64,000 nucleotides of DNA from an uncultured Collinsella sp. (GCA_958420205.1 CATZIX010000007.1:63490-127489); one strand, 5' to 3'; positions 15,390 through 35,984 are shown, counted from the first letter of the stretch. Notes: generated from the sequence alone by a model not told the origin. A program made the numbers and translations.

Positions 15390-17840
15390 ATGGAATCGTT
15401 GTACCGAAAGTATCGCCCGCTCACCTTCGACTCTGTGGTGGGCCAGCAGCATATCGTCTCGACGCTCGAGCACGCCATCACCGAGGGGCGCCTGTCCCAC
15501 GCCTACCTGTTCTGCGGACCGCGCGGCACGGGCAAGACCACCATGGCGCGCATTCTGGCCAAGGCGCTACTGTGCCGCAATGCCGAGGCGGCGCGCGCCG
15601 AGGGTGCAAGCGGCTGCATGCCCGACGGTACTTGCGAGGAGTGCGAGCTCATCGCCGAGGGCAACCACCCCGATGTCTACGAGCTCGATGCTGCAAGCCG
15701 TACCGGCGTGGACAACGTGCGCGAGGAGATCATCAACTCCGTCAACTTTGCCCCGGTGCGCGGCAAGTACAAGATCTATATCATCGACGAGGTCCACATG
15801 CTCACGACGGCGGCGTTCAACGCGCTGCTCAAGACGCTCGAAGAGCCGCCGGCGCACGTGATCTTTGTGCTGTGCACCACCGACCCGCAAAAGATTCTGG
15901 AGACCATCCTCTCGCGCTGCCAGCGCTTCGATTTCCACCGCATCGGCAACGAGGATATCGAGCATCGCCTGGCATACGTGTGCGAGCAGGAGGGCTTCGA
16001 TTACGACGACGAGGCGCTGGCTATCGTGGCGCGCCATGCAAAGGGCGGCATGCGCGACGCGTTGTCCACGCTGGAGCAGCTGAGCGTCTTTGGCAACGGT
16101 TCTGTGCATGCGGACGACGCCCGCTCGCTTTTAGGCGAGGTTTCGGACCAGATTCTGGGCGAGTTTTCCCGCGCCATTGCCGATCGCGATGTTGCCGAGC
16201 TGTATGGGCTTATTCGCGCGCAGGTCGAGGAAGGTAACGATCTGCTGGAGCTGACGCGCGACCTGGTGGCGCACGTGCGCGACGTGTATGTTGCCTGCGT
16301 TGCCGGTGCCCGTGCCGAGTTGTTTGAGGGCGGCTCCGAGCAGGCCGAGGCGCTTGCTGCCGAGGCCGCTGCCTTTGGCGAGCATCCTGCCGACCGCCTG
16401 GCTCGTGTGCTGACAGTGCTCGACGATGCCGCACTGGAGATGAGGGGCGCGAGCGACGTGCGCCTGGTGCTCGAGATTGCCTGCACGCGTCTGGCGCGTC
16501 CCGAGGCTGATTTAACGATTGAGGCATTGGCCGAGCGCGTGGCACGCCTGGAGGCCATGGTTGCCAACGCCGCCGTGCCGGCGAGCGTGGCTGCTGCTCA
16601 GGCCGCCGCGCCTGCAGCATCCGTACCCGCTGCTGCCCAACAGCCGACGCTCATTTCGGGCGCCCGCGCTGCCGCCCCGGCGGCATCCGCTGCCCCCGCT
16701 GCTACGTCCGCGCGCCAGGGCGGTATGCCTTGGGACCGTGGTGCTGCTGTTCCGGTTGCCCAGCCTTCGCCCCGTTCTGCGTCCGTGTCAGCTTCCAAGC
16801 CTGCAGCGCCTGCACCTCAGCCTGCGCCGGCTCCGACGCCTCAGCCCGTTGCGGCCCCCGCGCCTGCCATCGCTCCGGCACCTAAGCCCCAGTCCAACAA
16901 TGCCGCCCAGGTTGCCGCCGCCGGTGCTGCCGAGACGCCCGCGGTCGAGGATGCCGGAGAGCTGCAGCGCAAATGGGCCGAGGTTGTCGAGCGTGTCAAG
17001 GCGCGTCAGGCTTCCTACGCAGGGCTTTTGCTCAACGCCCGCGCCACGGCCGACGACGGCTCCAAGCTCACGGTCTCGTTCCCCGCGGGTTCGACTTTTG
17101 CCATTAAGATGCTCGGTCGCGCCGATACGCAGTCGGTGGTCCTGCCGACGGTCTGCGCGGTCTTCGGTCGTCGTACCGTCGACTATATCCTGGATGGGGG
17201 TGGCACGCCGGCTCCTCAACATGAGGAGCATTCTCCATCTGCACGGGCTGCGGCATCTGCGGACCCGCAACCCGTGTCCTCGGCGGCCCCTGTATCCTCG
17301 AGCGCCAGCGCGCCGCAGCAGCAAGCGGCGCCGGTAGCGGCATCGACCCCGTCGGCGCCTAAGCCCGCGGCGCCCAAACCGGCTGCTCCGACACCCGCGC
17401 CCAAGTCGTCTGACCTGGGCAAAGCCCCCTGGCTACGCTCCGACAACCCCGCCGGCGCTCCTGCCACGGGTAAGCTCCCGACCGAGCCCGCGCCCCGAGC
17501 GCCCGAGCGCGCGTCCGCTCCCAAGGCTCAGCCTGTCGCGCCGTGGGAATCCGAGCAGGTGCCCTACGACGACGCTATGGTCGGCGGCTTCGCCGGCGAT
17601 GCGAGCGGGGACGATCTGCCTCCGTTCGACGTGCCGGGTGCGACGCCCGCGCCCAAGTCCGCTGCATCTGCCCCCAAAGAGGAGGACGCTCCTGCAGCTC
17701 CCTGGGAGTCCAACCCCGGCGCCGGCAGCCCCTTCGGCCATCAGGGCGCAGCCCCGAGCATCCCGCAGACCGAGGACGAGGCCAAAGACCTCATCCGCAG
17801 CGTCTTCGGCCAGTCCACCATCTTCAAGCCGGTGGAGTAG
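15390..17840 (+). CDS. dnaX: DNA polymerase III subunit gamma/tau
   Basis: YRKYRPLTFDSVVGQ, GPRGTGKTT and IYIIDEVHMLT are present. A long Ala/Pro-rich low-complexity region precedes the C-terminus. The ATG follows GGGGGAG. The track ORF is extended upstream artefactually. Confidence 0.92.
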   Translation: MESLYRKYRPLTFDSVVGQQHIVSTLEHAITEGRLSHAYLFCGPRGTGKTTMARILAKALLCRNAEAARAEGASGCMPDGTCEECELIAEGNHPDVYELDAASRTGVDNVREEIINSVNFAPVRGKYKIYIIDEVHMLTTAAFNALLKTLEEPPAHVIFVLCTTDPQKILETILSRCQRFDFHRIGNEDIEHRLAYVCEQEGFDYDDEALAIVARHAKGGMRDALSTLEQLSVFGNGSVHADDARSLLGEVSDQILGEFSRAIADRDVAELYGLIRAQVEEGNDLLELTRDLVAHVRDVYVACVAGARAELFEGGSEQAEALAAEAAAFGEHPADRLARVLTVLDDAALEMRGASDVRLVLEIACTRLARPEADLTIEALAERVARLEAMVANAAVPASVAAAQAAAPAASVPAAAQQPTLISGARAAAPAASAAPAATSARQGGMPWDRGAAVPVAQPSPRSASVSASKPAAPAPQPAPAPTPQPVAAPAPAIAPAPKPQSNNAAQVAAAGAAETPAVEDAGELQRKWAEVVERVKARQASYAGLLLNARATADDGSKLTVSFPAGSTFAIKMLGRADTQSVVLPTVCAVFGRRTVDYILDGGGTPAPQHEEHSPSARAAASADPQPVSSAAPVSSSASAPQQQAAPVAASTPSAPKPAAPKPAAPTPAPKSSDLGKAPWLRSDNPAGAPATGKLPTEPAPRAPERASAPKAQPVAPWESEQVPYDDAMVGGFAGDASGDDLPPFDVPGATPAPKSAASAPKEEDAPAAPWESNPGAGSPFGHQGAAPSIPQTEDEAKDLIRSVFGQSTIFKPVE

Positions 17841-17861
17841 CTGTACGGGCGGGTATACTGC

Positions 17862-18335
17862 TCAAGAAGAGATCTCTTTGTCCGGGCGCATCTGTATTTC
17901 GGACATGTGTAGTGTGGTGCCGCGTATATCGCATTCGAGCAGACAGGTGCGTGACGGTCGGCCTAGGATGCTGAGGTCGATACGATACGTCGCATGGCTG
18001 TCCGTGTATTCGGCTTGCTCGGCGTTGACGGTTGCTCCGATTGTCAATAAAGAGCCTAGTTCGGCATCGACAATCTTGGAGTCCTTTATCTTGACCTTGA
18101 ACTCTTGGTAGAGGGACGGGCTGTTGTAGTAAATGGTTCGACTTCCGTCGGTGCACTCATCGGTCGCTTCCCATTTGACGACGGGCTGGTCCGAGCTGGC
18201 TATCAGTAGTTCTGCTCCAAAGGCTATAGCATGGGTGATGACAACCAGTAATGCCCAGCCGACAAAGAGATAGAGAACCACATATGCAACGGGGTGTTTT
18301 GAGCGGATGTTTTGGAGCGCGTCGGGGGCATTCAT
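17862..18335 (-). CDS. hypothetical membrane-anchored protein
   Basis: 157 aa. GGAGGTG RBS lies 5 nt before the ATG. One N-terminal TM helix. Locally lower GC. Confidence 0.55.
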   Translation of the reverse strand: MNAPDALQNIRSKHPVAYVVLYLFVGWALLVVITHAIAFGAELLIASSDQPVVKWEATDECTDGSRTIYYNSPSLYQEFKVKIKDSKIVDAELGSLLTIGATVNAEQAEYTDSHATYRIDLSILGRPSRTCLLECDIRGTTLHMSEIQMRPDKEISS

Positions 18336-18676
18336 GGGGGCACCTCCAAATTGCTGTCTGTGACAATCAAATTATACCTTGCCATCATGAGCGCCGCCTC
18401 GAGCAGCGGTTCGGCATTTTGTTATCTAGCTGGATGCAGAAAATGTCGGATTCCGGCTCTACAAGATTTAGCTTTCAATATTATGCAGATGCGAATTATT
18501 CAACTTCGCATAATCTTTGGGTGCGGCTTGCACTCCAGGACATGTATATCGACTGAGGTAGCGTGTCCGCCCCGCTCGCTGGCCTCGCGCCGTGGTACGA
18601 TTTTTGAGTTTGAAAGTCCCGCCGTGCTCCGGCTGCCCTTGCAGCTTGTCGCGCGGCCGCACGTAAAGGAGCCATC

Positions 18677-18997
18677 ATGGCCGGTATGAACATGCAGCAG
18701 ATGATGAAGCAGGCTCGCAAGATGCAGGAGCAGCTTGCCGCCGCGCAGGAGAATCTCAAGTCCCAGACCGTCGACGCCTCTGCCGGCGGCGGCATGGTCA
18801 AGGTGACCGTTAACGGCGAGATGGAGCTCGTCAACCTCACCATCGATCCCGATGCCCTCGATCCCGAGGACGTCGATATGCTGCAGGATATGATCATGGC
18901 TGCCGTCAACGAGGCCGTCCGCGGCGTCAACGAGCTCGCCAACAAGCAGATGGGCGCCATCACCGGCGGCCTCAACATCCCGGGCATGCCGTTCTAA
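18677..18997 (+). CDS. ybaB: YbaB/EbfC nucleoid-associated protein
   Basis: 106 aa. [15 protein letters not shown]...[11 protein letters not shown] is the YbaB signature. It occupies the conserved position before recR. Confidence 0.92.
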
Positions 18998-19010
18998 GAC
19001 ACGCATATAT

Positions 19011-19607
19011 ATGAGTGCGAATCACAGTCTGCAAAAACTGCTCGATGAACTGGGTCGTCTGCCGGGCATTGGTCCCAAGTCGGCCCAGCGCATCGCCTAT
19101 TACCTGCTCGAGGCCGATGCCGAGGAGGCCCGCCGCCTGGCCGAGGCCATCCTGGAGGTCAAGCAGGAGGTCCACTTTTGCAGCCGTTGCTTTAACTACG
19201 CCACGGCCGACGAGTGCTCCATCTGCCAGGACCCGATGCGCGATACCACTCGTATTTGCGTGGTGGGCGAGCCGCGCGACGTCCAGGCGATCGAGCGCAC
19301 GGGCAGCTACCACGGCCTGTACCATGTGCTGGGCGGCGTGATTAGCCCCATGGACAAGATCGGTCCCGAGCAGCTGCATATCCGCGAGCTGCTGGCGCGC
19401 CTGGGCCACGAGGACATCCACGAGGTCATTATCGCCACCAACCCCAATATCGAGGGCGAGACCACGGCGAGCTACCTAGCTCGCACCATCAAGCCACTAG
19501 GCGTCGAGGTGTCGCGTCTGGCAAGCGGCCTTCCCGTGGGCGGCGACCTGGAGTATGCCGACGAGCTTACGCTTGGCCGCGCCATCGAGGCCCGTCGCGC
19601 GATTTAG
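19011..19607 (+). CDS. recR: recombination protein RecR
   Basis: The HhH is [17 protein letters not shown], the zinc finger is [16 protein letters not shown], and a Toprim domain follows. Confidence 0.95.
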
Positions 19608-19852
19608 GTGGCGAGCCTGCTCCTGCCGTATGTTTTCCTCGCGATGCACGGGGTAGTCATAATTTCCCCGTGCGACTGTGAGTTTGTTGTGCAACAAAGA
19701 TGCTTCGTATCCGCTTATCGCATGGATGCTTCCGCTTGCATCCTTAATTTGCCCATTCGTTGCGCAACCTTTTAGGTTCGCTGATACACTCAAATATGGA
19801 TTTGAATGAATGCGCCGCTTCTGAGCGGCGTGTTTTTCTTGGAGGAGAACGC

Positions 19853-20758
19853 ATGCGGCCCGGTGGCACTCAGACAAAGCGCGGCGCCGCGGTGCGCATG
19901 CGACGCCGACTGGGCTTGGCGCCGCGGGCGTACGTGCTGCTGTCGTGCTCGCTGGTGCTGGTCATGGCTGGCGTTTCTGCCTATGGCATGACCGTGCCGT
20001 CCATGATGCAGGCGCATACCGCACGCGAACCGCGCGTGGGGCATGAGGTCAAAAGTGATCTGGGTACCACGACTGGATATGCTTGGGCAAGTGTGGTCGC
20101 GCATATTGTGTTTGGCACCGACGATGCGGACGGCGCCGAGGCCCCGGACAACGAAGTCACGCTTGCCAATGGCAAAACCATCGTGCTCACCAACACCAAG
20201 ATCATCGATCGGTTGTCCAACAATAGCGTGGCGGCAACGGTGAAAAAGGTCGAGCAGCAGAAGGAGCAGGACGCCCAGCAGTCCGGAAAGCCCGGTAGCT
20301 CGGATACTTCTGGCTCCGGCTCGGATTCATCGAGTTCGGGCGGCGGCTCTGGGTCGGGTTCCTCTACCGGAGGGTCTGGAAACGGCGGCTCGACGGGCGG
20401 CAACACTGACAACGATGCAAACTCCGGTGGCCTTTCCGCTGCTGAAGAAGAGAGCATTCACAGTTGGCTTGTGACCAAGTACAACATGCTCGACGGCTAT
20501 GTTTCTCGTGCCAATGACGTGGTCTCGACCTATAACTCTACGGGAGATCCCAGACCGTGCGACAGCCTGGTCGGGGAGATGTTTGTCATTCGAGCCGAGT
20601 TCGGTCGTCAGACATTCTCGCCCCGGTCAAAGTGGTATCAGCAGTATGCCAATCTGTGGGGCTGTTACACCAACCTATGTCAATGGGTCGGCCATTACGG
20701 CGATGATGACGTCGCGCTCGGTAACTTCAACAATAACGTGGCGGCGCTTGCCCTATGA
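19853..20758 (+). CDS. membrane-anchored/secreted protein with a Ser/Gly-rich linker, unknown function
   Basis: The ATG follows GGAGGAG. The signal anchor is VLLSCSLVLVMAGVSAYG, followed by the tract SGSGSDSSSSGGGSGSGSSTGGSGNGGSTGG. Its stop overlaps the kinase start (ATGA). Confidence 0.55.
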   Translation: MRPGGTQTKRGAAVRMRRRLGLAPRAYVLLSCSLVLVMAGVSAYGMTVPSMMQAHTAREPRVGHEVKSDLGTTTGYAWASVVAHIVFGTDDADGAEAPDNEVTLANGKTIVLTNTKIIDRLSNNSVAATVKKVEQQKEQDAQQSGKPGSSDTSGSGSDSSSSGGGSGSGSSTGGSGNGGSTGGNTDNDANSGGLSAAEEESIHSWLVTKYNMLDGYVSRANDVVSTYNSTGDPRPCDSLVGEMFVIRAEFGRQTFSPRSKWYQQYANLWGCYTNLCQWVGHYGDDDVALGNFNNNVAALAL

Positions 20759-22599
20759 TGACCGATCTTGCATCCACCACACCACAATCGCTCGGTCGCG
20801 ATTCCATGGTCGGCCTGCGCCTGGCGCGTGTCGACGGGTTTGAGCCGGCCATTGCGCTCGGTCAGGACGAACTGCCTGCCTATTTGCGTCGTTTTACGAT
20901 GCTGTTTGCCGACGATGCCACCATGCGCCGTGGCGGTATCGGCCGCGTGACGCGTGCCGTCAACGCCCAAGGCGAGGCCGTGGCACTCAAGCAGCTCATC
21001 TTGCCGACGCGCGATGAGTTTGACGACGATGCCGCTCACGAGGCGCTGGTCGCCAAGTTCAAGGCGGCGTTTCGCGAGGAATACGAATGCCATCGCGCCC
21101 TTTCGGGCCTTAAGGGCTTTCCCCGCCTCTATGGCTGGGGCGAGGTCGACGGTGTGCCTGCAATTGTCATGGAATGGGTCGAGGGCGAGACGCTTGCCCG
21201 CTTGCGTTCGCGACTCGCCGTGGACGATGCCGGACGTCTGTCGCCGCTCGTGGCGGCGCGTCTGGGTCGCGACCTGTTCGATTTGCTCTGCCGTATGAGC
21301 CTGGTGGGCGAGGGCTTTGTCCATCGCGATATCTCGCCCGCTAATATTATGGTGCGCACGGCGCGTCTACCGCTTGACCGGCAGCTTGCCGAGGGCACAT
21401 TTGACCTGTGCCTGATCGACTTTGGCTCATCGCTGGCGCTTGAGCCTGCGTCGGCCGTGGCCGGTACCGGCGGCAAGGCGTCGTTTACGGAGCGTTATGC
21501 CACGCTGCGTCGCGCGACGGTTGCCTATGCCCCGCCCGAGATGCTCACCGACGATATTCCCGACCTGCGCGCTTTGCGTATGTCACCGGCGATTGACGTC
21601 TATGCCGCGGCAAGCACGGTTTACGAGCTCATTGCCGGCGTCACGCCATACGAAGCCGCGCCGAGCACTTCGGGCGCCTCGGGTTCGCGCAAAAGGACGC
21701 GCGACATCGCGAGCCCCTACCGTCTTAAGATGGACACGCGGCCCGACTATCCCATTGGTGCCCATGCGCCCGGTTGTGATTTGACTCAGCTGCTTCGTCG
21801 TGAGCCCGATGTGGCGCTCGCCGCGGCCGAGCAGGCCCAGCAGCTAGGGCTTGAGCCGGATTCCGAAGAGCTACGCGATGCGCTGGCGTTTGTCGATGCC
21901 CAGCTGTTCGACGTGGTGATGGCCTGTCTGTCCAGCCATCAAAAAGATCGTCCCGAGCCGGCGGCGGTCGAGGCGGCGCTCTCAGCGTTTTGTGACCACT
22001 ATGCGCAAAATGTCGGCCGTTCGCTCCGCGGCGAGCCGCTCACGCCGTGCCCCATGGATGCGTCTGGCCGCGCGGTTCGTCGCGCGCTGATGGTCGGCGC
22101 GACGGTCGTCTGTGGCGTGGTTTGGGCTGTGATCGTGGTTTCGGCCGCGCTGCTGGCGTCGGGCGCTCGCGTGACGGCGACTTTGGGATCGCTCGTGTGG
22201 TCTGGGTCGCTACCGGGTATTATTGCCGCACTGGCGTTGGCGCTGCCAGGCATAGCCGGCGTTGCCGCGGGGGCGCTTGCGCGCGATCGGCGCTCGGGCT
22301 TCCTGCAGGGTGTGCTTGCGCTTTCTGCCTGCGAGGTTCCGGTGCTGGTTGTGGCTGCATGTAGCGTATTTTCCCAACGCGCCGTGATGGGCGGCCTTGT
22401 TGCCGCTCTGGTTGCAACCTATACGCTTACGTGGTTTTTGCTTGCGATGGGCTTTGCCTTTGAACTTCCCGTTTCGGCACCGCGACGCACAAAAGCCCAG
22501 ATGGCGACTCCGCTTGCCGGTGGAGCCGCAGCTGCCCGTACTTTTGGCGGACCTGTCGAAGTATCGTCCGATTCTATTTCTACGACTAAGGAGGCCTAG
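20755..22599 (+). CDS. Hanks-type kinase-like protein with an atypical catalytic loop and a polytopic membrane C-terminus
   Basis: VALKQL, HRDISPAN (Ser in place of the catalytic-loop Lys), DFGSS and APE are present. The C-terminal ~170 aa has several TM helices. Confidence 0.75.
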   Translation: MMTDLASTTPQSLGRDSMVGLRLARVDGFEPAIALGQDELPAYLRRFTMLFADDATMRRGGIGRVTRAVNAQGEAVALKQLILPTRDEFDDDAAHEALVAKFKAAFREEYECHRALSGLKGFPRLYGWGEVDGVPAIVMEWVEGETLARLRSRLAVDDAGRLSPLVAARLGRDLFDLLCRMSLVGEGFVHRDISPANIMVRTARLPLDRQLAEGTFDLCLIDFGSSLALEPASAVAGTGGKASFTERYATLRRATVAYAPPEMLTDDIPDLRALRMSPAIDVYAAASTVYELIAGVTPYEAAPSTSGASGSRKRTRDIASPYRLKMDTRPDYPIGAHAPGCDLTQLLRREPDVALAAAEQAQQLGLEPDSEELRDALAFVDAQLFDVVMACLSSHQKDRPEPAAVEAALSAFCDHYAQNVGRSLRGEPLTPCPMDASGRAVRRALMVGATVVCGVVWAVIVVSAALLASGARVTATLGSLVWSGSLPGIIAALALALPGIAGVAAGALARDRRSGFLQGVLALSACEVPVLVVAACSVFSQRAVMGGLVAALVATYTLTWFLLAMGFAFELPVSAPRRTKAQMATPLAGGAAAARTFGGPVEVSSDSISTTKEA

Positions 22600-22602
22600 G
22601 TC

Positions 22603-23541
22603 ATGGCATCTCAAGTTGAGCTCACCCCATGCGGGGCCATGTTTGACATCTTTAAGCGCGCGGCGCATCTGAGCCATATCGAGCTGTGCGGCTTGGTGCT
22701 TTCGTCCCGTCCGCTCGCCGACGGCCGCAGCCCGCAGAGCCGAGCCGCCGATCGCTCTTGGGTTTCCCGCTTTATCGTTCGCGCGCCGGTCGGCACGCTT
22801 CAGCAGCGCTACTTTGCCGAATACGGTACCTCGGCTGCGCGCATTATGTCGCAACTGGCCCTGCGCCAGCGAAATCCCATGGACTCCACGGCTGTGATCA
22901 ATATGGTGTGCGGTCCTGCAGGTGAACCGATGGTACGCGCGCTCGAAGAGTGCCACCAGGACACGAATCTCTATCGCAACGCGCTCGATCGCCTGTCCCA
23001 GGCGGCGGAACTCATGCCCGCCGAGCGCGCCGAGGCCGTGCTGGTGCTGTTTGTCGCTGTCGGTTGTTCGGCGGATGTGCGGTCCTCGGTGAACTATGCC
23101 ATCGACTACGCGCACGCGACCTGTGGCGGAGGCACCTCCACGCCGCGTTCGCTTGGCATGTCGATGACCGCGGGCGAGCGCGAACCCGCCCCGGCGCACC
23201 CCTTGGGCTTGCTGCGCGTGCAAAACAGTTTTGTCGTGAGCGCTCCGCGCTGGATTCAGCCGAGTGAGCAGGGTGTTGAGATTGGCGCGCTGGCCACTGG
23301 TGAGGGCGATATTACCGACGTCGGCGACGATGTCTCGGCCCGCCATGCCCATATCTGGTGCGATGCTCAAAATATCTGGCGCGTCGAGGACTTGTCGTCC
23401 ACCAACGGAACCGTGGTGGTAAACGGGGCCACGCGCGTCTGCATTCAGGTCGAGCCCGGCCGTTCCGCCCAACTCAATCCCGGCGACGAGCTCAAGCTCG
23501 GCGAATCCACTACCTACGCCATCCTGCTCGGCGCCCTCTAG
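22603..23541 (+). CDS. FHA-domain protein (unknown N-terminal domain plus C-terminal FHA)
   Basis: AAGGAGG RBS. The FHA core is VSARHAHIWCDAQNIWRVEDLSSTNGTVVVNG...LNPGDELKLG. Confidence 0.78.
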   Translation: MASQVELTPCGAMFDIFKRAAHLSHIELCGLVLSSRPLADGRSPQSRAADRSWVSRFIVRAPVGTLQQRYFAEYGTSAARIMSQLALRQRNPMDSTAVINMVCGPAGEPMVRALEECHQDTNLYRNALDRLSQAAELMPAERAEAVLVLFVAVGCSADVRSSVNYAIDYAHATCGGGTSTPRSLGMSMTAGEREPAPAHPLGLLRVQNSFVVSAPRWIQPSEQGVEIGALATGEGDITDVGDDVSARHAHIWCDAQNIWRVEDLSSTNGTVVVNGATRVCIQVEPGRSAQLNPGDELKLGESTTYAILLGAL

Positions 23542-23647
23542 CCGGCAGTTAGGGGCGTTCCTTTTCTGCCGGCACTTGGGGGCACTTCTCTGCGCGCCAG
23601 AGCCGGTCGCCTGGGGATGGAGAGGCCATTTTGGCCCTTGGCGGTCA
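23109..23647 (+). repeat. left copy of the ~530-bp direct repeat flanking the AT-richer island (3' half of the FHA gene plus ~105 bp downstream)
   Basis: Aligned by eye to 29860..30382. The 5' part is diverged. Tract 23332..23525 matches 30067..30260 with a single mismatch. Confidence 0.85.
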
Positions 23648-23778
23648 GTCGGGGCGAAACTAGAAGATCTTTCCGATTCGCGGCTGTTCATGCTTGTAGA
23701 GCATCTAAAACAATAGGATGTTATTCTGGAATATGCCGGGTGCGTGAACTTGCCTGTCTTAGCCTTAAAAAGGTATAG

Positions 23779-24527
23779 GGGAGTTTGGCTCAGGGGTTCC
23801 GTCTTGTTCTTCAGCGCAGTATTGTGGGACAGATTTGCTGAGATTGGCGCCTTACACCGCAGAGCGCACGGAAGGCTCTCGATTTGTGTTCTGGCCCCAG
23901 AATACAGGGCCTGATACTTACCAACTGTGGCATGGATGTAACATCTGTAGAAATCAACCCTTTTGTTGTCGACCTTTGTAAGAAGAACACTGCCATCAAC
24001 TCTTTGGATGACGAAACTAGGGTGCTTGAGGGGAGCCTTTACTCCCCTCTGTGAGATGACTCATGTTTTTCGCTTGTCGTTGTGAATCCTCCGTTACTGC
24101 CGATTCCGGATGAGATTCCTTATCCCTTCGTTGGGGATGGGGGACAATCGGGTCTGGATATAACACTTCATATTCTTAAGGGTGGCGATACGCATTTAGA
24201 GGAAAACACTAAATACTGCTAATAGGGGTGACGACGATGGCGTAGGGGCGACCCACGATGCTCGCATCAATACGTCGGCTACTTGGGGAATCAGGTCTAG
24301 ATGCATGTATGATGATACTGTGCAGCTATTCAATTAGTCCGCGTTCCGAATGGGTGCGGGGTATGGCGGCGACGTCGTATGCTTTTGCCCTGGCGCGATA
24401 CTCAGGTATTTCTGAGGCGGTTGACGAAGTTTATACGCGCTATGCCGCGCAAGGCGTCCGGAAGTTTGCACATCTACATTACGGGCTTAGGTTTCTTCAA
24501 GCGAGCAGGCTGGTTGCGTTATTATGA
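23779..24527 (+). pseudogene. decayed class I SAM-dependent methyltransferase
   Basis: Motif I-like LDLCSGP, then VTSVEINPFVVDLCKKN and an NPPY-like VVVNPPLLP, all in one frame. That frame is broken by in-frame TGA codons at 23839 and 24052. A frame shift leads into the 24258..24527 ORF (LLGESGLDACMMIL). Confidence 0.45.
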
Positions 24528-24614
24528 GCGATTTTTCTAGCCTAGGCGACAAAAGGCAAAGGATTTGGTGGGTGTAAAACGAGGTCGTTTGCGGGCGGAC
24601 GCTCCAATCTATTG

Positions 24615-24660
24615 TGGCAATCGGGCGGTTGAAAAAGATATTTCAATCGCCCGATTGCCA
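24615..24660. promoter_or_regulatory. 20-bp-arm palindrome (TGGCAATCGGGCGGTTGAAA-AAGATA-TTTCAATCGCCCGATTGCCA) ~150 bp upstream of the ABC exporter
   Basis: Read directly. There is one G:T position in the arms and no flanking T-run. Candidate operator rather than intrinsic terminator. Confidence 0.4.
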
Positions 24661-24805
24661 GATTCGTCGGAGGAGATGTCCGATTCCGACTCTCTTGTAG
24701 GAAGAGCTTGAGACCGTATTGGCCCAAGGCAATCTTAAAGCAGTCTCATTGGCAAATCTTCGCTCCTGTTGTGTTGAGGTGTAAGGTATCAGTGATTGAT
24801 GTTTT

Positions 24806-26458
24806 GTGGCGGGTAGATTGGGGCCTTCCTTGATTCGATGCGTTCTCTCGAGGTTCATCAGAGCAAAAGGGGCTTTCGTCTTCATTGCTATCACGGTGAT
24901 TGGAACCGCTCTCTCCTATGCCATGCCATACGTGAACGGAAAATTTTTAGATTTTCTTCTCGGTAACCGCAGCGAAAGAGACGCCGCACTCTTCGCACTC
25001 CTGGTTGCGTCAATAGGAGTTTTCTCCACCCTCTTTACTTATTTTGCAGGAACACTTTCCATTCGCATAAGCACGAGACTTTCCTTTGATCTTCTCAGGG
25101 AGGCCGTCTTGCGTTTTGAAAGAGACGATTACTTGGTGAGTCGGACCATCGATCCAGCCTATACAACGCAACGGATTATTTCCGACTCCAGCGTGGTCTC
25201 ATCCTTCGTTTTGGCGAATTTCATCAGTGCGCCGCTGTCCATTGTAGCTATTCCCATCGTATTGCTTATCATATGGTCAATTGATTCAACTCTCGCGGTG
25301 TTTTCCATCATTCTCCTCATCGTGTATTTCTGTGTAATTACTGGGTTGAGGAAACTTTTGTATAGGGTCACGTATGAGAAGAAAGAGGCGGACAGCGCCT
25401 TTTACGCCGCAATTGCATCGCAGCTTAATCAGATTCTCAACATTCAACTGGCATCTTCGTACGGCAAGAGCGAACAAGCGCTCGACGCTGGGTTTAAGAG
25501 CTATTTTCCCAAAGTTTTGCGCTCCGGAAAGCTATCATATTCTCTGACATCGCTCGATGGTCTTTTCGCAGCGTTGTTTCAAGCGGTGATACTTGTTGTT
25601 TCCGGAGTACGAATCATTAACGGAACTATGTCAATAGGCGAGTACACTATCATCGGTACATACTTCGCGGTTCTCTTTAAGACTTTGAAAAGTATGATGT
25701 CATTGTTCAAATCCTATCAAGATGCCAAAGCATCATGGGATAGGACGGCTATCGCGACGAGAGAAAAGGAGAGATCGGGGTGGAATCGGACCGATTTAGC
25801 TAAACTCGATGAAATAAATGACATTTCGGTATCTGATTTGGAATTCTCGGTTGCCCTTCCAGACGGATCTGTCCGAGAGGTCCTCGGCGGGTTTTCTTTC
25901 AAGTTTTCCGGTCCTGGTACATATTGCATAGTTGGGGAAAACGGAAGAGGCAAGACATCACTTCTTTACTTGATGCTCGGGCTATACTCATCGAAAGGCA
26001 AAGTAAAATACAACGGCGTGCCAATCGAAGAATGCGACTTGGATTACATACGTGCGAGAGAGATATCGTGCTGCCCACAGTCGTGCTTCGCGCCGGACGA
26101 AACGGTGAAAGAGCTGTTAGAGTATTTCGACACGCCCTTTTCTTCCTATCACCGGGGTGTAGATGGCCTACTTTCGCTGGAAAACAGCGTGAAGGAGTTG
26201 CTCGGGAAACGTTGCTCCGCGCTTTCGGGCGGTGAGCTGCGCCGAGTGTACTTATGGTCGGCGATTTCACGCAAGTCGTCAGTTTTGGTACTCGACGAGC
26301 CCACGACTGGGTTAGACGCTGTAAGCCGCGCCGAGCTTGCGGCCTATGTTAAGCGCAACAAGCAAAGCCAGCTGATCATCGTTGTCTCTCACGATGACGA
26401 GATGGTCGGCGCGGTAGAAGGGGTAGTGGATTTAGGCAGCATGTACCAGGGTAAATGA
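24806..26458 (+). CDS. fused TMD-NBD ABC exporter (no C39 peptidase domain)
   Basis: The N-terminal ~300 aa holds six hydrophobic segments. The NBD has Walker A GENGRGKTS, Q-loop CCPQS, signature LSGGELRR, Walker B VLVLDEPTTGLD and H-loop VVSHD. The start codon is uncertain (GTG 24806). Confidence 0.85.
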   Translation: MAGRLGPSLIRCVLSRFIRAKGAFVFIAITVIGTALSYAMPYVNGKFLDFLLGNRSERDAALFALLVASIGVFSTLFTYFAGTLSIRISTRLSFDLLREAVLRFERDDYLVSRTIDPAYTTQRIISDSSVVSSFVLANFISAPLSIVAIPIVLLIIWSIDSTLAVFSIILLIVYFCVITGLRKLLYRVTYEKKEADSAFYAAIASQLNQILNIQLASSYGKSEQALDAGFKSYFPKVLRSGKLSYSLTSLDGLFAALFQAVILVVSGVRIINGTMSIGEYTIIGTYFAVLFKTLKSMMSLFKSYQDAKASWDRTAIATREKERSGWNRTDLAKLDEINDISVSDLEFSVALPDGSVREVLGGFSFKFSGPGTYCIVGENGRGKTSLLYLMLGLYSSKGKVKYNGVPIEECDLDYIRAREISCCPQSCFAPDETVKELLEYFDTPFSSYHRGVDGLLSLENSVKELLGKRCSALSGGELRRVYLWSAISRKSSVLVLDEPTTGLDAVSRAELAAYVKRNKQSQLIIVVSHDDEMVGAVEGVVDLGSMYQGK

Positions 26459-27050
26459 TGACAAGTGTAGTGCTACCCAACTGGCAGAGATAACAAAAAG
26501 GCGATGCAGATGCACGTAGCATTCAGGCGGTTCGGACTCGGTGCCTTCACGCCATCGCAACGCTTTCAGATATAGTTCTCGTTCTCTTACTAAAGGAAAC
26601 TTTAGTCTACGTCATCTTGTCGAGACAGAGGTGAAGCGAAGTGTTGTCGCGACGTATCTTATTCCAGGTGGCTCAGTATCAGCGTGAGAATCGCACCAAA
26701 GTGTACTTACGATTCTCGTGTCCCACGGACAACATGAGCTGAGCATTGAGGTTCCACCCTTTGCTGCAACTACACGGGGTTGGACGGCAATGAATATGCC
26801 GGGCCGCATACCACGCGCAGCGGGGGTCCATGTCCCAGTATGTTGCCTACAGCAGCCTCGATGTCCGCGCACACATCATCTCTGCCTTCGCGTTCAATCC
26901 ATTTGCCGGAGAGTGCGAGGGTTGCCAGGCCGTAGAATTCGAGCCGAACAAATGAAATGCGGTATCAGCGCATAGGATTAAACTGACGATTGCTTTGCAC
27001 TGAGAATACGCTTGGAAAGCCGCTATGGGTGGCGGCCCGGGTTAAATAGA

Positions 27051-27093
27051 GAAGCCCGTCCGATCACTTTCATGTGGCGAACGGTCGGGCTTC
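27051..27093 (-). terminator. hairpin GAAGCCCG(T)CCG...CGG(T)CGGGCTTC downstream of the minus-strand peptide operon
   Basis: An 11-bp stem with one mismatch and T/A-rich flanks on both sides. It lies 66 nt after the stop of the 35-aa ORF. Confidence 0.45.
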
Positions 27094-27158
27094 TTATTCC
27101 ACTTGCCAATGCTCGGCTCATATTGGAAGAAAGCTACGCTAATGTTTGCGTGACACTC

Positions 27159-27266
27159 CTATTTTCTCCGAAGAAAGAGTCGGATAATGAAGAATAGAAT
27201 TAAAAAAGGTGCCAGATATAACGCAAGTATAAAGGCTAATCCAACGAGACCTTGCAATAATGGCAT
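27159..27266 (-). CDS. 35-aa hydrophobic peptide MPLLQGLVGLAFILALYLAPFLILFFIIRLFLRRK (candidate membrane/immunity or accessory peptide)
   Basis: Not in the ORF track (below 60 aa). GGGAGGAG RBS lies 4 nt before the ATG. A single TM helix is followed by a basic tail. It sits directly downstream of the precursors on the same strand. Confidence 0.4.
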   Translation of the reverse strand: MPLLQGLVGLAFILALYLAPFLILFFIIRLFLRRK

Positions 27267-27344
27267 AACTCCTCCCAGACACGAGATTTTGGTATTTGTT
27301 CCCATCTTATTCTGAATTGGACCAAATAGTTCCTAGCCACAAAA

Positions 27345-27524
27345 CTACTCGTCAACTGGATCGCACCAATCTGCTGGCAAAACACAGCTTGATTCTTTAT
27401 CGACATAGCACCAATCCGCAACAGGGCACTCGGCGATGTCGTAAAAATTGCATATATCAACTCCAAGACAACAAGGCTCAACGGGAGGATGTTCATTTGA
27501 ACCAACAGGATGGATATGCTTCAT
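27345..27524 (-). CDS. RiPP precursor peptide 2 (59 aa): MKHIHPVGSNEHPPVEPCCLGVDICNFYDIAECPVADWCYVDKESSCVLPADWCDPVDE
   Basis: Hand-translated; absent from the ORF track (below 60 aa). The ATG is preceded by AAGGTGAGGAG. It shares the MKHIHP leader and the C-LG-x-DIC-x-(V/F)YD block with precursor 1. It has 7 Cys and 10 Asp/Glu. Confidence 0.75.
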   Translation of the reverse strand: MKHIHPVGSNEHPPVEPCCLGVDICNFYDIAECPVADWCYVDKESSCVLPADWCDPVDE

Positions 27525-27554
27525 AACAGCTCCTCACCTTAATCCAATTAGAGA

Positions 27555-27758
27555 CTACGTTTGATCAATGCCACAGTGATCTACAACGCAGATGCTGCCG
27601 CCATCCATGTCATAGTCGCAGTAATCGTATGCACCACAGCCATCTGCTTTATCATAAACAGTACAGATGTCAGTAATGCCCAAGAGGCAGTCAAAAGACA
27701 TCGGCTTCACGCCTGCCTCGTCGCCACTTCCTGGATTAATCGGATGAATATGCTTCAC
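27555..27758 (-). CDS. RiPP precursor peptide 1 (67 aa from GTG): MKHIHPINPGSGDEAGVKPMSFDCLLGITDICTVYDKADGCGAYDYCDYDMDGGSICVVDHCGIDQT
   Basis: This is the 3' part of track ORF 27555..27806. GTG 27758 is preceded by GGGAGG plus 5 nt, and using it gives the same MKHIHP N-terminus as precursor 2. It has 6 Cys and 11 Asp, and lies immediately downstream of the rSAM gene. Confidence 0.8.
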   Translation of the reverse strand: MKHIHPINPGSGDEAGVKPMSFDCLLGITDICTVYDKADGCGAYDYCDYDMDGGSICVVDHCGIDQT

Positions 27759-27927
27759 GACTACCTCCCTTTGAGTGCAGAAAAACCTCAATATTGTGTA
27801 TAACAAACCAAGATGTCTAGTTCACCATATTTCTAGAATGGTTTCGGCGAATGTAGCAATAAGCTTCGCAGACGGTAATCAGAAGAACGAACACCTCCAC
27901 AATGGTGACAGCAATGCGCTGAACCGC

Positions 27928-29286
27928 TTATTCCGATACAGTAGCTTCTCGTTGATTTTTCTCCTGCGAAGATGAGTGGCGGGAAATAAGGTCAAAAGCC
28001 ATCTCGTAGCACATTTTTCTATATTCACATGATGCAGGGTGTAGACTCTTGGGCAAGTAGCCGTGCTCGTCTGCAGCCTCCCAGCTACAGCCCCCACCAC
28101 AGAAAGACCGAGCCCAACAGTCCGTACAGTCAATTCTTTTTTCGACACCCTGACTCCAGTTTTCAATATACCTAGTTTCGTCAATTCCGGTGACGATGTT
28201 GCCCATTTTGAATCGCATCATCCCGACAAACCTGTGACAGGGGTATACGTCCCCTTCGGGAGTCACGGAAATAAAACGCCTGCCAGCCCCGCATCCGACA
28301 AAGGCGATCCTGTTGCTCATAATCAAATCAACTGCAGTTTTCAATGTTCTAAACAAGGGCTTTTCCCCTTGATCAATCTGTTTGAGATATTGATCCGCCA
28401 AATCTATTAGGCCCGCCCTGATTTTGTTTAATGAGTGTTCGTCGAGTTTGATATTCTCATCGAATGAGCTCACGGGCGAGAAGTAAATCCTTCTGAAGCC
28501 CATCTCTTTAAACTGAAGATAGTCTTCAACAAGGTTACAGTTATTATTTGTTAAGGTCGCTCTTGCGCCGAAGGGGAACGACTCGGAAAAACGACGAACG
28601 TTTTTGTCGATATCGGAGAAAGAGCCGCCTCCCGTCTTGTACGGGCGCGATGCATCGTGCTTGCATCCTGTACCATCGAGACTAATCAGAACAGAAAACC
28701 CGTGCTCCTTGAAAGAATTCACAGCAGTGTCATTCAAAAGCGTTCCGTTGGTCGTAATAGAATAGGTAAAGTTTCTATTGGGGTATATTCTTTTTGAATA
28801 GTCGACCGTTTTCCATATCAGCGGCTCGTTAATCATGGGTTCCCCACCAAAAAAGACGATCGCAAGCGTTTCGTTTTCCGATGAACTTGCGACGAGGTAG
28901 TCGACCGCCTTGAAGGCTATCTCGTCTGTCATCAGCAGAGGAGACGTTCCATAATCTCCTTTACCGGCAAAACAGTAACTACAACCAAGGTTGCATGCAT
29001 GTGAAACGTGGAGTTCGATGGATCTAAGTTTTCGAGGCGTGTCTTTTGTTAAGAAAGTCCGCTCAGACAATCGTTGATACTCATCAATGTCGTCTTCAAG
29101 TTCTGCTATGGTCGTTTGGTCGTAGCCTTTCGCAGCAAGTGACTTTGTTAGCAACTTCGAGTTGACCGTTCTTCCCGATGCTTCAAATATGCGAAGCGCA
29201 TCTTCTGATGCTTGGTCAACCTGAAAGCAATTGCGAGTGACCTCATCGAAGCAGTAACGACGATCACTTACTGAGAAAAAATGCAT
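27928..29286 (-). CDS. radical SAM enzyme with a C-terminal SPASM domain (peptide maturase; SCIFF/ranthipeptide/sactipeptide-maturase-like)
   Basis: The CX3CX2C motif is SHACNLGCSYCF. The SPASM cysteines are CGAGRRFISVTPEGDVYPC, CTDCWARSFCGGGC and CEYRKMC. The N-terminal ~100 aa looks like a peptide-recognition (RRE-type) domain. Start is ATG 29286, or GTG 29316 as in the track. Confidence 0.9.
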   Translation of the reverse strand: MHFFSVSDRRYCFDEVTRNCFQVDQASEDALRIFEASGRTVNSKLLTKSLAAKGYDQTTIAELEDDIDEYQRLSERTFLTKDTPRKLRSIELHVSHACNLGCSYCFAGKGDYGTSPLLMTDEIAFKAVDYLVASSSENETLAIVFFGGEPMINEPLIWKTVDYSKRIYPNRNFTYSITTNGTLLNDTAVNSFKEHGFSVLISLDGTGCKHDASRPYKTGGGSFSDIDKNVRRFSESFPFGARATLTNNNCNLVEDYLQFKEMGFRRIYFSPVSSFDENIKLDEHSLNKIRAGLIDLADQYLKQIDQGEKPLFRTLKTAVDLIMSNRIAFVGCGAGRRFISVTPEGDVYPCHRFVGMMRFKMGNIVTGIDETRYIENWSQGVEKRIDCTDCWARSFCGGGCSWEAADEHGYLPKSLHPASCEYRKMCYEMAFDLISRHSSSQEKNQREATVSE

Positions 29287-29802
29287 ACGTTCCTCAATTT
29301 CATGCTGGACTGGCACTAACCTTGTTTATTGTCGCGCAGCTATAAAAAACCACCAGCGGGGATTCGGTGTGCGGCCCAATCGGACTCCCAAAAGGTTCTA
29401 TTTGAGACTGGCAAGCTTTGTGTTGTTGGCACTTCGACAGCGCTCTTTATTCCAACATGGAGCCTCGCAGTTTGAGTCGACTTGCCTCTGGAAGGTCCGA
29501 TCTTAACTTGATTTAGGATGAAAACAGATTACAGGCGCGCTCCTCTAGAAAGAAAGGAAACCAATCGCCGCCTTTCACCAGGAAAGTTTTCATAGCCCAC
29601 CTCGAGCAAAATGAAAGATGCGAGAGCGATTGGGGAACAACGCGAATCTCCCCTTTTGGGTGGGAGCGAGCCTTCAGCCACCGGCGAACGACTCGCCCTG
29701 GTCAGAATCTGGAAGTGGTGCCGGGCCGCTTGGGCCTCCCCGGTGACTTCGTGGGGCTTACCTGCCTGACGTCGAGGAGTACATCCGCAAGATTCGTTCC
29801 CT

Positions 29803-30276
29803 ATGCCGTTTGCTCTCACGCCCGCCTTAGTTCCAAGTCGGGCGAGCCGCCGCGCTCATGCGACCCGTGGCGGCGACACGTCGACGCCGCGCTCGCTGAG
29901 CACATCTTCGGTCGCGGGCGAGCACGAGGTCGCGCCGGCGCATCCGCTGGGACTGCTGTGCGTGCAAAACGGCTACGTGGTGAGCGTCCCGCGCTGGATT
30001 CAGCCGAGTGAGGAAGGCGTTGAGATCGGCGCGCTGGCAACGGGGGAGGGCGGCATCACCGACGACGTCTCGGCCCGCCATGCCCATATCTGGTGCGATG
30101 CTCAAAATATCTGGCACGTCGAGGACTTGTCGTCCACCAACGGAACCGTGGTGGTAAACGGGGCCACGCGCGTCTGCATTCAGGTCGAGCCCGGCCGTTC
30201 CGCCCAACTCAATCCCGGCGACGAGCTCAAGCTCGGCGAATCCACTACCTACGCCATCCTCTTCGGTGCCCTCTAG
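29803..30276 (+). CDS. 5'-truncated paralog of the FHA-domain gene 22603..23541 (complete FHA core, no N-terminal domain); possibly a pseudogene
   Basis: From HATRGG... onward it aligns with the C-terminal half of the 312-aa protein, and the last ~65 codons are almost identical. There is no convincing RBS at ATG 29803. Confidence 0.5.
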   Translation: MPFALTPALVPSRASRRAHATRGGDTSTPRSLSTSSVAGEHEVAPAHPLGLLCVQNGYVVSVPRWIQPSEEGVEIGALATGEGGITDDVSARHAHIWCDAQNIWHVEDLSSTNGTVVVNGATRVCIQVEPGRSAQLNPGDELKLGESTTYAILFGAL

Positions 30277-30382
30277 CCGGCAGATAGGGACGTTCCTTTT
30301 CTGCCGGCACTTGGGGACACTTCTTGGCGCACCAGGGCCGGTCGCCCAGGGATGGAGGGGCCATTTTGGCCCTTGGCAGTCA
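29860..30382 (+). repeat. right copy of the direct repeat flanking the island
   Basis: See 23109..23647. Relative to the left copy it carries a 9-nt deletion (GTCGGCGAC). Confidence 0.85.
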
Positions 30383-30727
30383 CCCAAGGTAAACCTTTAC
30401 CGCCCGCCTATATTTGCCGAAATTACACTTGACGGCGGGGTACAATAAGCCCGCATGCGGATTTCCGTTGCGGGCGCTTCCCATCGCCGGGGCGTGCCCG
30501 GGAGCATCCGGCATGCGGCCTTTGCGGCGCTCGGTCATGTGCAAGACGGGCGGTCGGGTCTGTGGGGCGCATCAGCTGCTCCTCGCCTCGGCATGTCTTC
30601 TCTCCACGCCACGTACCTGCTGCTGAGCCTGCCTGCCAGATGATTGGAAGCAACAGCGTAAATCCCATCACGCCAACATCCCGGCGATCGCCGGGGCCTG
30701 TATACCTATATGAGAGGAGAGGGGTAT

Positions 30728-34267
<3,540 letters not shown>

Positions 34268-34318
34268 GTCTCCCACCGCAGGATCTGAGGACTGACCTTC
34301 GCGGACGTCCTCGGACAT

Positions 34319-34361
34319 GAAAGAACCCCCGCTGCGCACTACGTGCGGCGGGGGTTCTTTC
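34319..34361 (+). terminator. stem-loop GAAAGAACCCCCGC...GCGGGGGTTCTTTC after nifJ
   Basis: A 14-bp perfect stem with a short T-rich tail. It is nested inside a larger palindrome at 34278..34402. Confidence 0.6.
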
Positions 34362-34921
34362 GTCCTGCGGAGTGTCCGCGAAGGTTAGCCCTCAGATCCT
34401 GCTACGACTACGTCCTCGGATGTGATGGCGGATGAAGGACGTGGTTGTGGGGGGCTTTTGTCCCCTTCGCTGTTTCGCGGCTTTGCCGCGAAACCTCGCG
34501 CCACTTTGGGGATGGATGGGGGACTTGGCCGTTGCCGCTTTTTCGGAGCTCTTCTTTATTCCTTTTGTTGGATGAAAAGCCCCTTGTTTTTGCAGGGGTG
34601 CATACTCGACTTATATGTGCATAGAATCTCGTATAGTGCGAGTAAGATATTGCGCTGTCTGTTTTGTGTTTAGCAAAGATATAGTTTGCATAATCCGACA
34701 TAATCCTCGCTTCATTTAAATAAAGTCGCACGTAAATTACGTAGATATGTCTTAGCTGGAGTTCTGTACGCTGAGCGGATAAAAACGACCGTTCACCGTT
34801 CCGCTATTTTCAAAATGAATAAAATGAGCGATAAAGAGAATATAAACCTTAATAAACTCGCGTATCGCACGGACGCGGGTTATTAATGGGTTGTAGGCCT
34901 TTTACAGAAAGGATTCCAGCA

Positions 34922-35884
34922 ATGTCTAAGCCTCTTGGCAAGCCCGATCGTATTGTCGTCGCCCTTGGCGGCAACGCCCTCGGCAACAACCCCGTCGAGC
35001 AGATCGAGGCCGTGAGCAACACCGCCCATGCCCTCCTCGGCCTCATCGAGCAGGGCAACGAGATCATCATCACCCACGGCAACGGCCCGCAGGTCGGCAT
35101 GATCCAGAACGCCTTCGCCGCTGCCCACGATGCCATCGGTACCCCCGAGATGCCGCTGCCCGAGTGCGGCGCCATGTCCCAGGGCTACATTGGTTATCAC
35201 CTGCAGCAGGGCATCGGCCGCGAGATGCACAAGCGCTATAAGCGTTGGCACGCCGCCACCGTCGTCACCCAGATCGAGTGCGACCCGGATGATCCCGCGT
35301 TCAAGAACCCGACCAAGCCGATCGGCCCCTTCTACACCGAGGAGCAGGCCAAGGAGTTCATGGCCGAGGATCCCTCCAAGGTCTTCGTCGAGGATTCCGG
35401 CCGCGGCTGGCGTCGCGTCGTCGCTTCCCCCGATCCCAAGAAGATCGTCGAGGCTGACTCCATCCTCAACCTGCTCGACAACGAGTTCATCGTCATCGCC
35501 TGCGGTGGCGGCGGCATTCCCGTCGTCCGCGACTACGAGAACAAGGGCTGCTACAAGGGCGTTCCCGCCGTCATCGACAAGGACCTGGGCGGCGAGCTGC
35601 TGGCCGAGGACTGCGATGCTGACGTTCTGTTCCTGCTGACCGCCGTTGAGCATGTTGCCATCAACTTTGGCAAGCCCAACCAGGAGGAGCTCGAGGACCT
35701 CACCGCCGACGAGGCCGAGCGCCTGGCAGACGAGGGTCAGTTCGGCAAGGGTTCCATGGAGCCCAAGGTTCGCGCTGCCATCAAGTTCGCCCGTTCCCGC
35801 AAGGGCCGCACCTGCATCATCGGCGCTCTGGACAAGGCCGCCGAGACCATGGCTGGCCTCTCCGGTACCCGCATTCACGAGTAG
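34922..35884 (+). CDS. arcC: carbamate kinase
   Basis: IVVALGGNAL, ITHGNGPQVG and IACGGGGIPV are carbamate kinase / amino-acid kinase family signatures. Confidence 0.88.
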   Translation: MSKPLGKPDRIVVALGGNALGNNPVEQIEAVSNTAHALLGLIEQGNEIIITHGNGPQVGMIQNAFAAAHDAIGTPEMPLPECGAMSQGYIGYHLQQGIGREMHKRYKRWHAATVVTQIECDPDDPAFKNPTKPIGPFYTEEQAKEFMAEDPSKVFVEDSGRGWRRVVASPDPKKIVEADSILNLLDNEFIVIACGGGGIPVVRDYENKGCYKGVPAVIDKDLGGELLAEDCDADVLFLLTAVEHVAINFGKPNQEELEDLTADEAERLADEGQFGKGSMEPKVRAAIKFARSRKGRTCIIGALDKAAETMAGLSGTRIHE

Positions 35885-35950
35885 TCTCTACTCTGTTGCC
35901 TCTCTCGTGGGCGCCAGGTAAAGCGCCCACAAACTAGCCTCTCTTCATGA

Positions 35951-35984
35951 GCCCCGCAGTCCGCTCCGACTGCGGGGCTTTTGC
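35951..35984 (+). terminator. rho-independent terminator GCCCCGCAGTC-CGCTCC-GACTGCGGGGC-TTTTGC after arcC
   Basis: An 11-bp GC-rich stem followed by a T-run. Confidence 0.75.

Follow-up and report, generated by a model that had tools for sequence, protein, structure and literature searches.

A peptide-maturase islet between the FHA and nifJ genes of Collinsella appears to end in the orphaned 3' end of another FHA allele

Introduction

How does a low-GC island with no recombinase gene come to lie between two long copies of the 3' half of a neighboring gene? The question is raised by a stretch of DNA from an uncultured Collinsella sp. (GCA_958420205.1 CATZIX010000007.1:63490-127489), 64,000 nucleotides long and called here the window, in which a gene for an FHA-domain protein is separated from nifJ by a 6.2-kb islet. 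The islet encodes a putative pathway for a ribosomally synthesized and post-translationally modified peptide (RiPP). An initial annotation, made from the sequence alone, compared the layout with islands that target the 3' end of a gene and replace it with one of their own, and took both repeats to be copies of the resident FHA gene. Comparison with related loci points to a different origin for the right-hand repeat, which is best explained as a displaced fragment of the FHA allele of another Collinsella lineage.

Results

The right repeat matches the FHA allele of another lineage

The comparison used 174 related loci, including 80 species-representative Collinsella loci retrieved by FHA protein query. 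All population inferences concern this one locus and were drawn from assemblies and metagenome-assembled genomes. The host group is Collinsella (aerofaciens group), and the FHA protein is 99-100% identical at the amino acid level in 80/80 species-representative loci. The resident FHA allele of the window is referred to as L-type and the FHA allele of another Collinsella lineage as R-type. The argument turns on the following features.

22603..23541, plus strand: intact FHA-domain gene, 312 amino acids, L-type allele (Pfam FHA at residues 236-300)
23109..23647, plus strand: left direct repeat, comprising the final 144 FHA codons and about 105-106 bp of post-stop spacer (type A), by alignment
23332..23525, plus strand: near-identical core encoding the FHA beta-sandwich core, with one mismatch against 30067-30260
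23648..29852, no strand: accessory islet, present or absent among Collinsella genomes, 6.2 kb, 48% GC
29853..30382, plus strand: right direct repeat, apparently the 5'-truncated 3' end of an R-type FHA allele with its post-stop spacer, by alignment
30383..30709, plus strand: conserved nifJ upstream region, with left edge CCCRAGGTAAACC

Alignment and base composition bear out the initial description of an AT-richer 6.2-kb segment bracketed by direct repeats: GC is 0.484 in 23648-29852 against 0.63 in the left flank and 0.617 in the right, the last 350 bp of the islet (29500-29852) being GC-richer at 0.564. The left repeat keeps the coordinates first given to it, on the plus strand, and the start of the right repeat moves from 29860 to 29853. 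Over the full alignment (23109-23647 against 29853-30382) the copies are 87% identical, with one 9-bp in-frame indel and a longest exact run of 144 bp, a similarity that far exceeds chance. It is unevenly spread. Identity is 94% between 23316-23615 and 30051-30350 and 79% between 23109-23323 and 29853-30067; the tract 23332-23525 has a single mismatch in 194 bp, and the approximately 105 bp past the stop codon are about 93% identical. A hairpin inside the left repeat, at 23541-23573, is the FHA terminator hairpin.

The two copies of the window differ at 55 positions in 23109-23331. At these positions all left copies are L-type, whether the site is occupied or empty, and all right copies are R-type. 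The block 29853-30066 is only 78% identical to the resident FHA gene in every genome, and it is 100% identical to a full-length FHA gene in locus L081 and 99.5% identical to one in L082, two contigs that are 83-84% identical to the window over the kinase-FHA region. R-type full-length FHA proteins have 309 amino acids, and in a protein search their C-terminal half equals the right copy of the window. The R-type haplotype was common in a metagenome scan.

The distal part of the gene tells the same two alleles apart. Across 23332-23541, L-type genes encode DAQNIWH..ILFGAL in 36/41 carriers of the islet and 38/43 non-carriers (74/84); at the equivalent positions R-type genes encode DDSGTWF, DDQNVWY, DESGAWF or DAQNAWH, with ILLGAL, and R-type alleles are found on 29/31 right copies. 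The post-stop variant CTCATCTCCTAA... follows 7 right copies and 12 R-type genes, and 0/84 L-type genes. Because its alleles and post-stop variants sort with R-type genes, the right repeat can be assigned, together with its spacer, to R-type DNA. It was annotated initially as a duplicate of the 3' half of the resident gene; these comparisons identify it instead as a probable displaced relic, the orphaned 3' end of the other FHA allele. The relic begins at a single breakpoint common to all carriers, the junction 29852/29853, which reads ..GCCGCCG and then CGCTCATGCGACC. The end of the islet (29317-29852) showed no homology to empty-site flanks beyond the repeat, by blastn with a word size of 7 or by tblastx.

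The islet is present or absent at a variable FHA-nifJ spacer

Among the 80 species-representative loci the islet is present in 38; 30 are empty, 8 hold a different insert and in 4 the contig is too short. The states other than occupancy by the islet are these.

Empty site with type A spacer, 105 bp: 11 loci of 80
Empty site with type B spacer, 55 bp: 16 loci of 80
Empty site with type C spacer, 137 bp: 3 loci of 80
Different insert, an IS110-family insertion sequence that starts at 23565, within the FHA terminator hairpin: 8 loci of 80

At the empty sites (30/80) one FHA gene is followed directly by the nifJ upstream region, which is the arrangement that the initial annotation had suggested looking for in relatives. 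It had also noted that related strains with both FHA copies and no island would indicate an older tandem duplication. No second FHA copy was found at any of 79 island-less loci, each with at least 1.5 kb of downstream sequence, the empty sites having been searched at the protein level as well. Because no island-less locus keeps a second copy, the island is a genuine indel polymorphism. Where a right copy exists it lies directly after the right end of the islet (31/31). Carriers make up 44/84 L-type loci, counting three loci with a short form of the islet (L022, L041 and L063), and 2/73 R-type loci.

The short form lacks the type A spacer and the whole of a methyltransferase remnant (the equivalent of 23542-24545), and its left junction joins the loop of a type-C-like spacer hairpin to position 24546 of the window. 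On the question of whether the short form is an internal deletion, a search for the type-C hairpin motif within the window gave no match.

The FHA-nifJ spacer itself takes at least three forms that are unrelated to one another (105, 55 and 137 bp), besides rarer lengths, with 463-709 bp from FHA to the nifJ upstream region in R-type genomes; CCCRAGGTAAACC is the constant right boundary of this hypervariable segment. The IS110-family insertion sequence (IS), with DEDD_Tnp_IS110 and Transposase_20 domains and a length of about 1.6 kb in L061, occupies one identical insertion point, equivalent to 23565, in L006, L015, L019, L042, L047, L049, L061 and L078 and in the R-type locus L081, and its ends are 99-100% identical. 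The shared insertion point suggests a sequence- or structure-specific target.

The islet is more uniform than its flanks

Between genomes the islet has a mean identity of 99.4%, compared with flank values of 97.1% (left) and 97.5% (right). At the extremes, L051 is 91% identical in its flank and 99.5% in its islet, and L085 is 89.8% identical in its nifJ flank and 98.7% in its islet. On a maximum likelihood tree of the adjacent 3 kb, the presence of the islet needs 23 changes, and well-supported branches force at least 14 of them; the mean with shuffled labels is 24.1. The islet is unlinked to the phylogeny of its flanks.

The FHA genes of the two R-type carriers, L082 and L095, are hybrids: they are about 74-88% identical to the window up to 23331 and 97.6% identical from 23332 through the spacer into the islet. 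Because of this switch at 23332, the L-type segment 23332-23647 can be said to travel with the left end of the islet; so, too, would the R-type fragment travel with the right end. Taken together, the patterns show islet and relic behaving as an insertion allele that is frequently exchanged among Collinsella lineages and lost again, across diverged backgrounds of both L-type and R-type.

Both R-type carrier contigs stop in or just past the left repeat and provide left junctions only. Attempts to obtain a complete R-type islet locus, by protein look-ups and a metagenome scan, gave these two left junctions and one divergent right junction, in L085. Positions 1-6800 of L085 encode Bacteroidota-like LpxB, NigD, SurE and FtsH proteins and are joined to a truncated nifJ, after which comes the Collinsella islet. 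This junction is most likely an assembly artifact, a chimera formed at the conserved nifJ, rather than a transfer.

No mobility gene was detected

The absence of an integrase or transposase, already remarked upon in the initial annotation, held in a Pfam scan of every islet open reading frame (ORF) of about 46 amino acids or longer: no integrase, transposase or recombinase domain was found in any of them. Plasmid and phage collections contained no match to the islet at blastn sensitivity, and there were no matches to tRNA genes or Rfam families near it. Promoter and terminator scans of the region returned nothing bearing on mobility, with counts not above those of shuffled sequence.

The near-identical core is specific to the lineage of the window

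Within carriers the median identity of the two repeats is about 81%, and their longest exact run, the position of which varies by genome, has a median length of 33 bp; the window, at 87% and 144 bp, is an extreme case. No att-like identical core common to carriers was found. Left and right cores are 0.878 identical within genomes and 0.880 between genomes, and because these values are equal there is no general concerted evolution of the repeats. Over 30067-30276 the right copy of the window matches the commonest L-type haplotype at every position; all other right copies have at least 18/210 differences from that haplotype, with the exception of L063 (2). The left copy of the window has 4 differences from the same haplotype, 3 of which give the R-like tail ILLGAL. 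Because its right copy equals the commonest L-type haplotype, the 194-bp tract is a later, lineage-specific exchange and not a feature of the element. It would have come about by replacement of the right segment 30067-30276 with common L-type sequence, the last codons of the left copy carrying R-type-like bases.

The 157-residue ORF across the right repeat

The initial annotation had reported a 5'-truncated FHA ORF of 157 amino acids at the right repeat, and we find the same ORF with an intact FHA domain.

29803..30276, plus strand: 157-amino-acid ORF spanning the relic, 17 islet-encoded residues followed by the C-terminal half of FHA (Pfam FHA, E=3e-9)

Could it encode a functional stand-alone FHA protein with a role in the RiPP pathway, such as regulation or control of export? 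Its frame and FHA domain are intact in at least 21/28 carriers examined and its alleles match functional ones, as would be expected of a gene. Recency and exchange with functional alleles account for that intactness, no Shine-Dalgarno sequence is visible upstream of the ATG at 29803, and a 76-bp deletion removes the start codon in 5/28 GTDB carriers (L002, L007, L023, L028 and L050), the right copies of L085 and L091 being truncated in the same way. Related cassettes elsewhere, moreover, have no FHA gene. We regard a functional protein as quite improbable; the ORF is probably not a gene but a young relic refreshed by recombination. One wastewater "RNA" run covers parts of 28660-30377, and this run may contain DNA.

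The islet carries a radical SAM peptide cassette

The RiPP-like genes seen in the initial annotation could be identified as a radical S-adenosylmethionine (SAM)/SPASM maturase, its candidate precursors and an ATP-binding cassette (ABC) exporter.

23779..24527, plus strand: decayed SAM-methyltransferase remnant with NPP-type motifs and interrupted frames (weak TRM5/TYW2 match, E=0.03)
24806..26458, plus strand: ABC exporter of fused permease and ATPase, 550 amino acids (Pfam ABC_membrane, ABC_tran)
27159..27305, minus strand: small hydrophobic ORF closing the precursor operon, from its translation
27345..27524, minus strand: precursor peptide 2, Cys/Asp-rich, 59 amino acids, with a KHIHP leader as in precursor 1
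27555..27758, minus strand: precursor peptide 1, Cys/Asp-rich, 67 amino acids from a GTG start, with a KHIHP leader as in precursor 2
27928..29316, minus strand: radical SAM/SPASM peptide maturase, 462 amino acids (Pfam Radical_SAM, Fer4_12, SPASM)

The cargo is predicted to be a ranthipeptide-like radical SAM/SPASM RiPP cassette in which two precursors are accompanied by a small membrane peptide, an exporter and a defunct methyltransferase. The cassette resembles ranthipeptide and SCIFF-type clusters (PapB, ScfB) in its radical SAM/SPASM maturase, in the adjoining Cys- and Asp-rich precursors, both of which lie downstream of the maturase gene, and in its ABC exporter. It differs from them in that the maturase falls under both family cut-offs, its top NCBIfam matches being the PapB ranthipeptide maturase (272 bits, cut-off 340) and the SCIFF maturase (266 bits, cut-off 425), and in that the precursors matched no NCBIfam family. 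The exporter matched bacteriocin/peptide-export ABC families in NCBIfam, all under cut-off, and the small hydrophobic ORF at 27159-27305 had no Pfam match. The precursors are also called as genes, of 67 and 59 amino acids, in L084, L086 and L092.

Outside the islet cluster, the nearest relatives of the maturase are 73% and 67% identical in amino acids and belong to minimal cassettes that consist of a maturase, one or more precursors and an ABC exporter. These cassettes (L087-L090) have 46-50% GC within 66%-GC genomes and lie at unrelated sites, without flanking repeats or an FHA gene: one is between IS elements and clpX, and the others are between an ECF (energy-coupling factor) transporter and murB. 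Two of them, L088 and L089, have a truncated exporter. Because similar cassettes occur at unrelated sites, the cassette can be called a recurrent, portable low-GC module of high-GC genomes, the FHA repeats being peculiar to the Collinsella insertion.

The maturase also has a variant of 468 amino acids, in L091-L094 (P0122-P0130), that matches at 97-100% identity across some 80% of its length and has a different end. It is accompanied by a 511-amino-acid exporter in L091 and L093, where no 59-amino-acid second precursor was called, and L091 has no called precursor; in L092 it stands alongside the full 550-amino-acid exporter and both precursors. In L093 an IS110-family transposase and an adenine deaminase region take the place of the right side of the islet (relic and nifJ), an arrangement that indicates a probable IS-associated rearrangement adjoining the maturase promoter.

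The flanking genes mark an identity boundary

On either side of the locus the window has the following genes.

20755..22599, plus strand: Ser/Thr-kinase-like gene in the left flank, the upstream partner of the FHA gene (Pfam Pkinase, E=4e-17)
30710..34267, plus strand: nifJ, encoding pyruvate:ferredoxin oxidoreductase, in the right flank (Pfam POR_N, POR, PFOR_II, EKR, TPP_enzyme_C)

The kinase-like gene is kept upstream of FHA in all related loci. In the R-type loci L099, L106, L111, L133, L152 and L155, the 10 kb to the left (about 12500-23540) are 87-91% identical to the window, with about 75% at the 3' end of the kinase gene, and nifJ with 10 kb to the right (30380-40200) is about 97.5% identical. 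The FHA-nifJ spacer is a sharp identity boundary, reflecting either a right-side sweep across species or a deeply dimorphic left side. Alleles of the FHA core (23360-23400 and 23440-23541) include DAQNIWH, DESGAWF, DDSGTWF and DDQNVWY; TRV, TSV and TNV; and ILFGAL and ILLGAL. They are 8-16% apart in DNA within genomes that are otherwise 97-99% identical, and this divergence could stem from co-variation with the equally dimorphic kinase.

A second variable spot lies downstream of nifJ, at 34529-34557 (with a GC dip at 34500-34999). L084 and L091 have an extra 2.8 kb there, encoding an AAA_14/DUF4143 ATPase in both and a DUF3830 protein in L084 as well. L086 has an IS with an rve transposase just past nifJ.

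Discussion

We consider it likely that the locus holds an integrase-free islet, accompanied by the displaced 3' fragment of an alternative FHA allele, which is shuffled among genomes by homologous recombination. Transfer would be of the RecA type, as the population patterns suggest, with the FHA 3' region as the left anchor and the relic, spacer and nifJ as the right anchor. The founding event would have been a one-off illegitimate join, a step of which we are less certain; homology-facilitated illegitimate recombination may have displaced the 3' end, or a circular fragment may have entered by a single crossover of the Campbell type. The phenomenon is ordinary in kind: a recombination hotspot is occupied by an accessory islet, alongside an orphan gene fragment that has been displaced. 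Homologous recombination had been one of the options in the initial annotation, in the form of exchange between the two repeats. The data favor recombination, acting mainly through the flanks and between genomes and not only between the repeats.

Several observations weigh against this interpretation. The expected precursor, a genome with the islet and without the relic, was not found among the loci examined. Microhomology at 29852/29853 amounts to 1-2 shared bases at most, none of it obvious. The right copy of the R-type carriers was not recovered, as the contigs of L082 and L095 end at the left repeat, and the case for recombination is built on population patterns. L-type and R-type may be either different species or two haplotypes of one region. 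Finally, the type B (55-bp) post-stop spacer was found after no right copy (0), yet it is the commonest empty site (16/30).

The leading competitor is a RecA-dependent Campbell cycle, in which a circle is excised by crossover between the FHA repeats and re-integrates into the FHA gene of the same or another cell, so that the repeats would be the mobility device. Insertion-duplication by a 3'-end fragment would indeed leave exactly this arrangement, in which the left-hand gene is complete and the right-hand copy lacks its 5' part. Empty sites exist, the spacer types after right copies are also found at empty sites, and the copies of the window look partly swapped, the left tail being R-like and the second segment of the right copy L-type. 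Most genomes, however, are wholly L-type on the left and wholly R-type on the right, the reciprocal chimeras that repeated cycles should generate being rare (the window and L063 are exceptions), and repeats of about 81% identity with 33-bp exact runs are a poor RecA substrate. A hybrid L/R first segment is seen at 0/30 empty sites, the missing type B spacer after right copies counts against this cycle too, and no circular form of the islet is known. We judge it decidedly unlikely. Still less can be said for a classical site-specific island with an att site in the FHA 3' end, an integrase that acts in trans or has been lost, and a replacement 3' end. The superficial likeness to tyrosine-integrase islands in the 3' ends of tRNA, tmRNA and protein genes is real, as low-GC cargo, 3'-end direct repeats and empty sites in relatives are common to both, and in the R-type carriers L082 and L095, and only there, the islet visibly supplies the 3' end of the gene through its left copy. 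The original comparison with such islands is partly supported, as regards the empty sites, but the layout is not an att-type duplication of a target site. L-type carriers, the window among them, keep their native 3' end, as in empty-site strains, and it is the distal fragment that is foreign, the reverse of the model. The islet has no recombinase and no plasmid or phage relative, and its 530-bp repeats, about 81% identical, lack a constant identical core across carriers. Site-specific integration is therefore very improbable on these counts.

The remaining alternatives concern the relic itself. Direct repeats that abut the insert exactly would be produced if about 530 bp of the resident FHA gene had been duplicated in situ at insertion and the 5' part of the right copy had then diverged. 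This proposal is barely credible and was rejected: the diverged part is nearly invariant among carriers and matches, at 100% identity, a full-length allele that functions in another lineage, the right-copy alleles and spacer variants match R-type genes, and decay under neutrality would not arrive at an allele that already exists. A further reading, which we think unlikely, gives the relic a use. With an L-type FHA 3' segment on the left and an R-type fragment on the right, the islet would be a self-armed cassette that carries its own homology arms for both allele classes, which would allow it to cross between lineages whose flanks, at 83-90% identity, have diverged too far to recombine normally, and the relic would be kept as spread-promoting. 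Under that reading the relic might also be a silent donor for FHA allele switching.

For the preferred interpretation, a displaced fragment shuffled by homologous recombination, the closest parallel is C-terminal displacement at rhs, cdiA/CDI (contact-dependent inhibition) and type VI secretion system (T6SS) effector-immunity loci, where orphan fragments occur and homology-facilitated illegitimate recombination has been proposed (PMC5361080 and the rhs work cited there). The displacement model has one homologous anchor and one illegitimate junction, followed by spread through ordinary homologous recombination. The likeness to those loci lies in the order of the parts, first an intact gene, next the cargo and last a 3' fragment orphaned from another allele of that gene, with no integrase. 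The Collinsella locus differs in that its gene encodes a regulatory FHA protein and not a polymorphic toxin, its RiPP cargo is unrelated to the displaced allele, it has one orphan and no array, and junction microhomology is not evident.

The islet indicates that no mobility gene is needed for a small biosynthetic cluster to pass between Collinsella lineages of the gut. Long direct repeats at the edges of an island need not be att sites; here one of them would be a fossil of an alternative allele, and population data should be consulted before a low-GC island with flanking repeats is called an integrative element. The locus is both a recombination boundary and a hotspot, where at least five states of spacer or insert occur, and it could serve for strain typing of Collinsella and for studies of inter-species recombination in the gut. 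Biologically, the peptide product is the more interesting target.

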